Positions 18,001 to 21,000 of a DNA stretch of 62,699 nt are shown one piece after another; the first letter of the stretch is position 1; every line of letters starts with the position of its first letter. Source of the stretch: Shigella phage POCJ13; the sequence record KJ603229; one strand, written 5' to 3'. Position numbers: made by a program.

Positions 18001-21000
18001 TGCCGTGGCGACAAAACAGGAAGCCGATGTTTTACCTGGTCTTGAAGGCGAATGCGTCAATATCCGCGAAAGCAGTGCGCAGATGAGCGTGAAGCGTATG
18101 GCAAGCCTGATTGAGTACACAACTTCCTGGGCTGTGGAGCAGGGGGTCAGATTTACCGACAGGAGGTACGAATGAGACGAAAGCGACGAAGCATCACCGA
18201 TATAGTCTGTGAAAACTGCAATTACCTTCCAACGAAACGTTCCAGAAATAAACTCAAGCCAATCCCAAAAGAATCTGACGTTAAAACCTTCAATTACACG
18301 GCTCACCTGTGGGATGTCCGTTGGCTAAGGCGTCGTGCAAGATTTAATAGTCATTCCGAATAGCTCAATGTACGAGGAATAAGATGATGGCAAACCTACG
18401 CAAAGAAGCGCGTGGCAGAGAATGCCAGGTACGGATTTATGGCGTATGCAATGGCAATCCTGAAACTACAGTTTTGGCGCATTACCGAATGGCTGGAATT
18501 TGCGGAACGGGAATGAAGCCAGATGACCTGTTGGCTGCATGGGCCTGTAGTGACTGCCATAATGAAATCGATCGCCGTACTCGCATTCTCGACAACAACG
18601 ACGCCAGACTTTACCACCTGGAAGGCGTGATCAGGACGCAGGCGATACTGCTGAAGGAGGGGAAAATTAAGTCATGAATGAATATGAGTTTGTGCTTCCC
18701 TGGCCGCCGACGGTGAATACCTACTGGCGAAGACGGGGAAGCCAGTACTACATCAGCGATAAAGGCCAGAAATACCGAAAAGACGTACAGCAAATCATCC
18801 GGCAACTCAGATTAGACATTTTCACTAAATCACGACTTCGCATCACAATTATTGCTGAACCACCAGATTCCCGCCGTCGCGACCTCGATAACATCCTGAA
18901 AGGTTTACTCGACTCTCTTATCTACGCCGGATTTGCGGAAGACGACGAGCAATTCGATGACATTCGCGTAATTCGCGGCGTGAAAGTGCCTGGCGGTAGA
19001 GTGGGGATAAAAATCACCGAACTGGAGAACATTTGATGAATGCTAAAATTCAAACGATACCTGAATTACTGATCTGCACCAGGGGAAATCAGACAGAAGT
19101 CGCCAGAATACTGAACTGCAATCGTGCCACAGTCAGAAAATACATTGATGATAAAGATGCGAAAAAGCACGCCGTCGTCAATGGCGTCCTTATGGTTCAT
19201 CGCGGATGGGGTAAAGATACTGATGCGTGATATCCGGCAGGTTCTTGAGCGCTGGGGTGCATGGGCGGCAAATAACTATGAGGATGTTACATGGTCGCCC
19301 ATTGCTGCCGGATTTAAGGGACTGATCCCCGAAAAAGTAAAATCACGTCCACAGTGTTGTGACGATGACGCGATGATTATATGCGGGTGTATGGCTCGCC
19401 TTAACAGGAACAACAGCGATCTGCATGACTTGCTGGTTGATTATTACGTGTTGGGGGAGACATTCATGGCGCTGGCACGTAAGCATGGATGCTCTGATGG
19501 AACTATCGGTAAAAAATTACAGAAAGCGGAGGGTGTGGTTGAAGGGATGTTAATGTTACTTGGTGTCAGACTGGAAATGGACCGATATGTGCAACGCCTC
19601 TGACAGGAGGCGTTTGCCGTTCACTATGTGAAGTGTGTCAATTTGTGAGCGTTATGCTGTTTACTTTATAGTACAGGGACGTAAGAGTTATCTACCTGTT
19701 AATAACATATATACAACAATGAACAGGGGGCAAAATGGACATTGAAGATTTTCTGGAGGCGGAAGACAATGATCTGTCTCTGTGGAATGATGATATTTTA
19801 AGCATTGACTGGTTCGTTATCCTCAAAGAGCTTTTGAAATACCAGAACAGGTTAAAGTTAAACTATTCAGAATTACTTCTGCTGGCTAATTTTGTTTCAT
19901 TTCACCAGGACGTAGATTCGCAAACATTACCATCAATATCTCTTTTTGCCACCAGAATGCGTACATCCCGGGACGCCATACAAGGAGTCCTGGTGTGTCT
20001 GGAGGAGAAAGATATGTTACAGAAGATAAGTTACGCGCAAATCGATCATGACGATGATTTGCGAAACATCTATGATATCAAGCCATTAATCCGCCGGTTA
20101 ATTTGGTTATTGAAAAGTGGTTGTGATAAAAAGCATACTTGCCCCCTCTGCGGGAAAGTCGCTATATCTAATGATGAAATTGAGAAAAAATTCGGATTCA
20201 GAATTTGCGGGAATAAGAAAAGGCCGCAAAGCTGGTGCCGTTCATGCAGAAGCACGAAACAACGCCGACTGAATACATCGCTAATTGGTAAAAAAAGGCC
20301 CCGCAAATCCCCACCAGAGGTGGTGTGAAGTGTCGCGGAATCCTTGATTCCGTTCCCGATTGAATGGGGTGCTAAAAAGTATTTTACGTACGTAAAAATC
20401 TGCATATCATGATAAGAGTGGTTGCATTGCCACGCAGCCGACCCCGTCGATGAGCGGGGTTTTTTTGTACCCAGAATCCTCTGAGCTATACGGAAAGTAC
20501 ACAGAAAGGAAGGTGCGACCACAATTAATAACAAAATCTTAAAAATCGCACATGGCACTATTAGTTTTCTAAATATTGTGTATTTTTTGTATTGCAGGAT
20601 GACCCTGTAACGAAGTTTGCGTAACAGCATTTTGCTCTACGAGTTTGCCAGCCCCCCAGTGGCTGGCTTTTTTATGTCCGTAACATCCTGTGTATCAATA
20701 AATGTTGTTGTCTACGTACGTCAAGTAGTCGCATGAGATCTGACCAGATATGTTAAGGTTGCAGCTCTCTTTGAATATAATTATCATTTTCATTACGTTA
20801 TTGTTACGTTTATCCGGTGCGCCGTAAAACGCCGTCCTTCAGGGGGTGGAGGATGTCAAGAATATAGTTATCGTATGGTGCTCAAGGAGTATTGTGTAAT
20901 ATGAAAATAATTATTTTTAGAGTGCTAACTTTTTTCTTTGTTATCTTTTCAGTTAATGTGGTTGCGAAGGAATTTACCTTAGACTTCTCGACTGCAAAGA

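Follow-up and report, generated by a model that had tools for sequence, protein, structure and literature searches.

In the canonical phages that carry Shiga toxin 1 (Stx1), as described for VT1-Sakai (AP000400) and the H-19B type, the antiterminator gene Q is followed by the late promoter PR', the small RNA (sRNA) StxS with its terminator tR', and the stx1 genes. The late promoter annotated in AP000400 overlaps the end of Q, and a qut site and two "terminators for the PR' transcript" come after it. It has been reported that the start of the PR' transcript, mapped by differential RNA sequencing (dRNA-seq), and the 3' end at tR', mapped by Term-seq, are separated by 258 nucleotides (nt) in the Stx1 phage of Sakai as well as in its Stx2a phage (Sy et al. 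2020, PMC7547250). Since Q-stx intervals serve Shiga-toxin phage typing and the prediction of toxin output, correcting the map of such an interval matters. Here we analyzed an open reading frame (ORF) located between Q and stx1 in Shigella phage POCJ13 (record KJ603229). The whole stretch of 62,699 nt is referred to as the window, and all features from Q onwards that are given with coordinates below lie on its + strand. We found that this ORF is a real gene. It is probably a functional accessory gene that sits, on the early side of the late promoter, in a cassette of about 774 bp and lower guanine-cytosine (GC) content in the 3' end of Q, and that encodes a small DNA-binding regulator.

The closest described genes are ORF1 of Shigella sonnei phage 7888 (AJ279086, CAC12886.1) and AHB80151.1 of phage 75/02 Stx. 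As in the window, Q, the ORF, PR'/tR' and stx1AB follow one another in these phages; the products have 197 amino acids and identical ends, with about 80% amino acid and 85% nucleotide identity to the window ORF over the core. The gene is already in GenBank through the phage 7888 record AJ279086, as "ORF1, hypothetical protein", and it matches PHROG 34160 (E=9.5e-133), which has no assigned function. Published accounts of 75/02, of POC-J13 and of PR' diversity do not discuss the ORF. For the protein, the nearest described fold is the N-terminal domain (NTD) of DnaD from Bacillus subtilis and Geobacillus (PDB 2v79, 2vn2, 8ojj; Pfam PF21984), with which the ORF product has a winged helix and an N-terminal extension in common.

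Purifying selection on the ORF

An in-frame stop precedes the ORF, which begins at the next ATG, 4 nt downstream of a Shine-Dalgarno-like AGGGGG run, and extends from 19735 to 20328, encoding 197 amino acids. The original prediction, made from the sequence of the window, had given these same coordinates and this length, and the ORF list bore both out. We compared seven alleles, five of them from E. coli prophages and one each from phage 7888 and the window; every one is open over 197 amino acids. The ratio of nonsynonymous to synonymous substitution (dN/dS) was 0.17-0.34 at dS values of up to 0.62, and this held for both halves of the protein. Furthermore, four cysteines (C136, C139, C168 and C171) and the motif surrounding them were invariant, including in relatives of 25-40% identity. 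Because dN/dS lies in this range and the product matches Pfam DnaD_N above the cut-off (PF21984, 33 bits versus 27; residues 31-127, profile positions 3-95 of 101), these results demonstrate that the ORF is a real gene and no chance reading frame.

The region was found in 19 of 5,426 complete E. coli genomes at 82-98% identity, with a Q gene directly 5' every time, and eight of these loci were examined as annotated sequence. Where sequence or annotation was read, the ORF was intact in two Shigella phages and seven E. coli prophage loci, and the copy in prophage 06-00048 was the sole frameshifted case among the eight E. coli loci inspected. In the remaining 11 of the 19 genomes, one "hypothetical protein" lies beneath the match, as seen at the level of the hit table only. 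Conservation in close relatives had been named as a check on the gene, and these counts are its outcome. A decaying, non-functional relic, open by chance or through recent acquisition, would fit the rarity of the gene (the 19 E. coli genomes, and two phages represented by 3 of 50,697 phage records) as well as the frameshift in one copy. It is at odds with purifying selection across substantial synonymous divergence, with a domain signature kept in distant relatives and with the good Shine-Dalgarno sequence, and we consider it extremely unlikely.

Domain architecture of the product

The product consists of a DnaD-NTD-like winged helix (residues ~15-127), a C4 zinc ribbon built on C136, C139, C168 and C171, and a disordered basic tail (residues ~172-197). 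Paired CxxC motifs and a lysine/arginine-rich tail had been noticed at the outset, and they are seen at residues 136-139 (CPLC), 168-171 (CRSC) and 172-197, where 9 of 26 residues are lysine or arginine; homology and structure prediction, proposed as a further check, identified the winged helix and the ribbon. Of the 31 homologues returned, 26 carry PF21984, among them 15 of the 16 close ones; it is missing from P0035 and from most short fragments. When a profile of the ORF family was compared with solved structures, it matched DnaD NTDs (2vn2, E=6.5e-16; 2v79, E=1.6e-10). At the level of structure, too, the fold agreed with that of solved DnaD NTDs. The C-terminal (DnaB_2) domain of DnaD, which binds DNA and DnaA, gave no Pfam hit in the ORF, in which the C4 zinc ribbon and the basic tail occupy that place instead. 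As judged from its sequence, the product is a DnaD_N-containing protein, yet no DnaD orthologue, because this C-terminal domain is absent. It further differs from DnaD in being encoded by a proteobacterial prophage, and a role in primosome assembly is without support.

The N-domain also invites the view that the product is a replication or recombination factor, that is, a DnaD/RepA_N-like origin-binding or scaffold protein, or else a remnant or competitor of such a protein, which would act on phage or host replication after induction. The DnaD NTD is the closest structural and sequence relative of the N-domain, weak PHROG matches (E=5e-4 to 3e-3) point to DnaD-like helicase loaders and replication initiators, and a relative of the N-domain is found on a small Mob_Pre/PemK plasmid. 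However, the ORF has neither DnaB_2 nor another initiator domain, the phage has a replication module of its own at 10267-12090 that includes a DnaC/IstB-like loader and lies far from the ORF, and iterons, which were looked for near the ORF, were not found. We therefore regard a replication role as unlikely. A truncated paralogue of the phage replication initiator was also considered and rejected, as the product has no similarity to the 358-amino-acid protein at 10267-11343.

The zinc ribbon covers about 45 residues (133-176; window 20131-20262) with the motif CPxCGK-A----EIE-KFGFR-----PQSWCR-CR, and both of its CxxC pairs are conserved across homologues, from which metal binding is predicted. 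In the AlphaFold2 model this part contains short strands at 155-158 and 161-164, and the predicted local distance difference test (pLDDT) score is 73-84 over residues 130-170. NCBIfam returned no match to the ORF or the ribbon, none of the Pfam zinc-ribbon families reached the cut-off, a PDB sequence search with the ribbon profile gave generic C2H2/ribbon noise only, and a structure search of BFVD gave nothing at E<=0.001. The ORF product lacks enzymatic domains. The ribbon is a widespread mini-domain, occurring in many stand-alone proteins of 50-60 amino acids, in tandem copies (P0019) and in fusions, and the ORF product brings to light this mini-domain, for which no curated family exists. 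Its fusion partners are ResIII/DEAD helicases and an Eco57I-type methylase; as these act on DNA, we counted them in favor of DNA binding by the ORF product.

The same fusions to ResIII helicases and an Eco57I-type methylase can be taken as a sign of an anti-host-defence function, in which the product would be a Lar-like anti-restriction protein or would interfere with restriction-modification/helicase systems through the shared ribbon. Weak Lar_restr_allev matches in 9 of 30 members of the zinc-ribbon family (best E=0.0014) go in this direction, as does a Pseudocitrobacter relative located in a genomic island, where it adjoins a pair of AAA ATPase genes. The PF14354 Lar matches nevertheless reach 13.5-15.9 bits, under the cut-off of 28.6, PADLOC-DB v2 yielded no family at E<=1, and the shared domain indicates association with DNA and not anti-defence activity. 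We judge this function to be quite improbable.

The cassette in the 3' end of Q

The Q gene of the window is a short allele of 126 amino acids (19223..19603), whose final codons and stop are derived from the cassette. It covers the entire PF06530 (Phage_antitermQ) profile (positions 1-118 of 118, E=5e-52) and is about 90% identical at the nucleotide level to Q of the 933W/H-19B type as far as ~19596, where homology ends. Canonical Q has 144 amino acids; the window allele is 18 amino acids shorter because the cassette substitutes for the 3' end of Q, and it retains the complete PF06530 domain. In an alignment with the canonical Stx1 phage AP005153, Q homology stops at ~19596 and resumes at 20371, so that about 774 nt (19597..20370), absent from canonical Stx1 phages, take the place of about 36 nt. 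Directly behind the cassette, 20371..20395 aligns with the final 25 nt of the Q genes of AP005153 and AP000400 and represents a remnant of the longer canonical 3' end. A megablast search of the 50,697 phage records found the entire Q-stx1 interval in three records, which correspond to two phages, Shigella 7888 and 75/02 Stx; all other Stx phages matched from ~20371 on only, at 96-97% identity.

The comparison of Q-stx intervals that had been suggested thus revealed an insert relative to canonical Stx1 phages, and the insert also deviates in composition. GC content is 41.6% in the ORF and 42.0% in the cassette, against 48.8% in Q and 49.3% in the window. The low GC reported for the ORF therefore stands in relation to Q and the window. 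It does not distinguish the ORF from its downstream neighbors, which are equally GC-poor: the PR'-stx1 interval and stx1AB have about 40-43%, and values are uniformly 37-44% from the ORF through the end of stx1B. Like phage morons (concept: PMC8065619), the cassette is extra DNA compared with sister phages, has a GC content below that of the adjoining early genes, is preceded by a hairpin and may have a promoter of its own. Unlike typical morons, it is located at the end of the early operon 5' of PR' and not in the late region, and it takes over the 3' end of Q where a clean insertion would lie between genes. The ORF is a rare yet ordinary prophage accessory gene. A transposon-like insertion was rejected, since flanking inverted repeats were not found at the cassette and the direct repeats near both of its ends amount to a single 10-mer (19627, 20324), which is close to chance expectation (an estimated ~0.6 per region).

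The cassette carries several possible expression signals. A terminator-like hairpin of 9 bp spans the Q stop (19593..19614; -20 kcal/mol, z=-2.5). At 2 of its 9 pairs, both bases differ between alleles in a compensatory manner, so that pairing is preserved. The T-run behind the hairpin is weak in the window, and a proper one (T6) is found only in 2013C-3033. A consensus scan gave a sigma-70 promoter-like site, TTGTGA-N18-TATAGT, at 19643..19672, as a candidate promoter of the ORF. Directly past the ORF stop there is an 8-bp hairpin (20335..20353) that has no U-run and is weak (z=-1.9), and the next true terminator-like element is the hairpin at 20440-20468, which is shared with other Stx phages. 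As read from the sequence, these signals would fit N-modified polymerase reading through from PR, weak expression of the gene on its own, or the two combined.

Position of the gene relative to the late promoter

It had been proposed that the ORF lies between the late promoter and stx1A. A consensus scan, together with homology to the "putative late promoter" of AP000400, placed PR' (TTTACG-N16-TATCAT) at 20383..20410, and its -35 hexamer starts 54 nt past the ORF stop (20328 versus 20383), so this placement was reversed. The published 258-nt distance, counted back from the T-run of Sakai tR', leads to a point 5-7 nt after TATCAT, and by homology to Sakai the PR' transcript in the window would start at ~20415-20417, downstream of the end of the ORF. 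An alternative PR' in the AP005153 annotation, with -35 and -10 elements at ~20545-20576, was rejected, as it does not fit the 258-nt distance from PR' to tR'. The -35 site annotated there is probably not that of PR' and lies within the StxS precursor. We also observed that the "putative -35" TTGCAC of AP005153 (~20546-20551) reads TCGCAC in all cassette-bearing sequences. Under either annotation of PR', therefore, the ORF stop is upstream of the late promoter.

Two terminator-like hairpins downstream of the ORF had also been noted, and both are present. The first, with a U7 run (20440..20468; stem 20440-20461), covers about +24 to +52 of the PR' transcript, and its conservation extends to canonical Stx phages, relative to which it shows compensatory changes. 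In form it resembles a strong intrinsic terminator. The main 3' end detected by Term-seq is at tR', about 200 nt beyond this hairpin (PMC7547250). Candidate roles for it are a pause or qut element, a partial terminator, or a terminator of upstream Q transcripts. The second is tR' (20647..20673; stem 20647-20667), the terminator of the short PR' RNA (StxS) that is overridden by Q; it is annotated in AJ279086, AP005153 and AP000400 and corresponds to a Term-seq 3' end (PMC7547250). Because both hairpins occur in phages without the ORF, they are not terminators of the cassette but the PR'-tR' elements of all Stx phages.

These positions bear on the model from which the analysis started, in which the late operon contains the ORF as a moron, located between PR' and stx1A, that is expressed only through antitermination by Q after induction and occupies the slot that tRNA genes have in Stx2 phages. 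The ORF does lie between the coding regions of Q and stx1A, and two hairpins do follow it. However, PR' is 3' of the ORF according to both the AP000400 annotation and the experimental Sakai map, the hairpins correspond to tR' and to the conserved hairpin close to PR', and prophage 06-00048 has the ORF and tRNA genes together, in the order ORF, PR', tR' and tRNAs. This model is very improbable. Its corollary, that transcription from the late promoter would limit expression of the gene to induced cells, was not upheld either, as the ORF is outside the PR' transcription unit.

From PR' to the region upstream of stx1, including the +24 hairpin, StxS and tR', the window shares the canonical layout at 96-97% identity. 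It differs from the canonical region in the 18-amino-acid truncation of Q, in the cassette that separates Q from PR', and in the center of a palindrome over the -35 hexamer, which is GTAC instead of GATC. The interval is thus a variant with a shortened Q and an extra gene on the early side, in which the late promoter, StxS and tR' are intact. The toxin genes are therefore expected to be regulated in an essentially canonical way, unless the protein acts on PR'.

Such an action was considered. The PR' -35 element is overlapped by a perfect palindrome of 14 bp, TTTACGTACGTAAA, at 20383-20396, and a protein that binds this palindrome could tune the constitutive activity of PR', the StxS sRNA and the Q-dependent expression of stx1 and lysis genes. 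The ORF ends 54 nt from the palindrome, and oligomeric winged-helix proteins are typically palindrome binders. In addition, the GTAC center was present in 11 of 11 cassette-bearing sequences and the GATC center in both of the cassette-less phages examined. The 10 other cassette-bearing loci all have the core TTTACGTACGTA; the palindrome of phage 7888 is imperfect, with the sequence TTTACGTACGTAGA, and the two cassette-less Stx1 phages have TTTACGATCGTAAA at this position, which contains a Dam GATC site. Against binding of this kind, no more than 13 nt separate the palindrome from the cassette border, so that simple linkage suffices to explain the co-variation, it also exists without the ORF, and just two canonical sequences were compared. 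The TACGTACGT palindrome was not enriched above chance in the window. We consider binding to this palindrome to be a distant prospect, and the stronger claim, that the cassette encodes a dedicated late-promoter regulator which would set StxS, Stx1 and lysis expression through the -35 palindrome, to be slightly more remote still. If true, it would add a layer of Shiga-toxin control that is absent from canonical Stx phages.

Linkage of the gene to the Q allele

The annotated E. coli loci differ in what follows the module. It precedes stx1a in PV15-279, S19-651, 2013C-4282 and 05-3629, and tRNAs and TerB in 2013C-3033 and 06-00048, while UPEC-245U and O10:H32 have no cargo and only an esterase gene behind it. 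These results demonstrate that the module is "short Q + ORF" and that it is linked to the Q allele rather than to stx1, so that stx1 phages are not its only carriers. It had further been stated that the position of the ORF holds tRNA genes in related Stx2 phages. In 06-00048 the order is ORF, PR', tR' and tRNA-Ile/Arg/Arg; the tRNAs of the Stx2 type therefore hold another slot, 3' of tR', coexist with the ORF and are no alternative to it. That tRNA genes are absent here was correct, as ARAGORN found none in the entire window. In 2013C-3033 (locus 3737-3897) the ORF, PR' and the first hairpin are kept, the StxS/tR' stretch is missing and tRNA-Arg comes next; the late leader is therefore about 200 nt shorter there.

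The ORF alleles also differ from one another internally. The core (19790-20230) has diverged by about 15% in nucleotides and about 20% in amino acids from the alleles of Shigella phages 7888 and 75/02, whereas Q, the ends of the ORF and the PR'-stx1 region are nearly identical to those of the same phages. The window allele is closest to those of E. coli 2013C-4282 and UPEC-245U. This pattern of a diverged core between near-identical flanks suggests, at the level of sequence comparison, recombinational allele swapping among prophages. The O10:H32 allele resembles a chimera of both ORF allele types.

Role of the protein

In the reading that we consider probable, that of an early-side accessory gene for a small DNA-binding regulator, the + strand carries in order Q (126 amino acids), the Q-stop hairpin, a possible weak promoter, the ORF, 54 nt, PR', the hairpin with U7, StxS, tR' and stx1AB. 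The ORF would belong to the delayed-early side, where it would be co-transcribed with Q by N-modified RNA polymerase from PR and perhaps also read from its own candidate sigma-70 promoter; the Q-dependent late promoter would not be its promoter. Any dependence on induction would come through PR and N read-through, along with Q. The combination of a winged helix, a C4 zinc ribbon and a basic tail argues for binding to DNA; the protein would probably oligomerize through the DnaD-NTD-like fold to do so, and it may serve as a small regulator or a DNA-associated accessory factor for the prophage or the host. The ORF and the short Q allele travel as one module, indifferent to the content past tR'. 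The original idea of a nucleic-acid-binding moron is thereby retained in part: the predicted domains favor nucleic-acid binding and the gene is on an accessory insert of lower GC, but its late-operon placement was abandoned.

Relatives of the full-length protein are few. A full-library HMMER search with the ORF gave just four hits below 1e-10. A two-domain relative in Cedecea sp. NFIX57 (locus 2005-2526), with 27% identity over the region aligned by BLASTP, is a lone gene with an NlpC/P60 gene on one side and a chaperone-usher fimbrial operon directly downstream. This place is typical of a fimbrial regulator, and by analogy we counted it in favor of a regulatory role. As the few full-length relatives occur in unrelated contexts, guilt by association does not give a consistent function.

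Several observations weigh against an early-side DNA-binding regulator. The AlphaFold2 model, built from a shallow alignment, has a mean pLDDT of 68.6 and is of moderate confidence only. DnaD-NTD-type domains are best known in replication initiators and loaders, not in transcription factors, and the N-domain-only relative on the small mobilisable Mob_Pre/PemK plasmid is Rep-protein-like. The candidate ORF promoter has 9 of 12 consensus matches, and its -10 element is poorly kept among alleles (TATAGG, TACAGG, TATGTA). Finally, the frameshifted copy in 06-00048 indicates that the gene is dispensable, at least for maintenance of the lysogen.

Toxin genes and adjacent RNA

Downstream of tR', the ORF list places stx1A at 20901-21848 and stx1B at 21858-22127, in a layout identical to that of annotated relatives. 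An Rfam search of 19000-22700 found no RNA family besides STnc100. This sRNA family (RF02076) matched at full length directly 3' of stx1B, at 22206-22419 (195 bits), and the match is probably the sRNA described as "bookending" stx1AB (PMC7547250).

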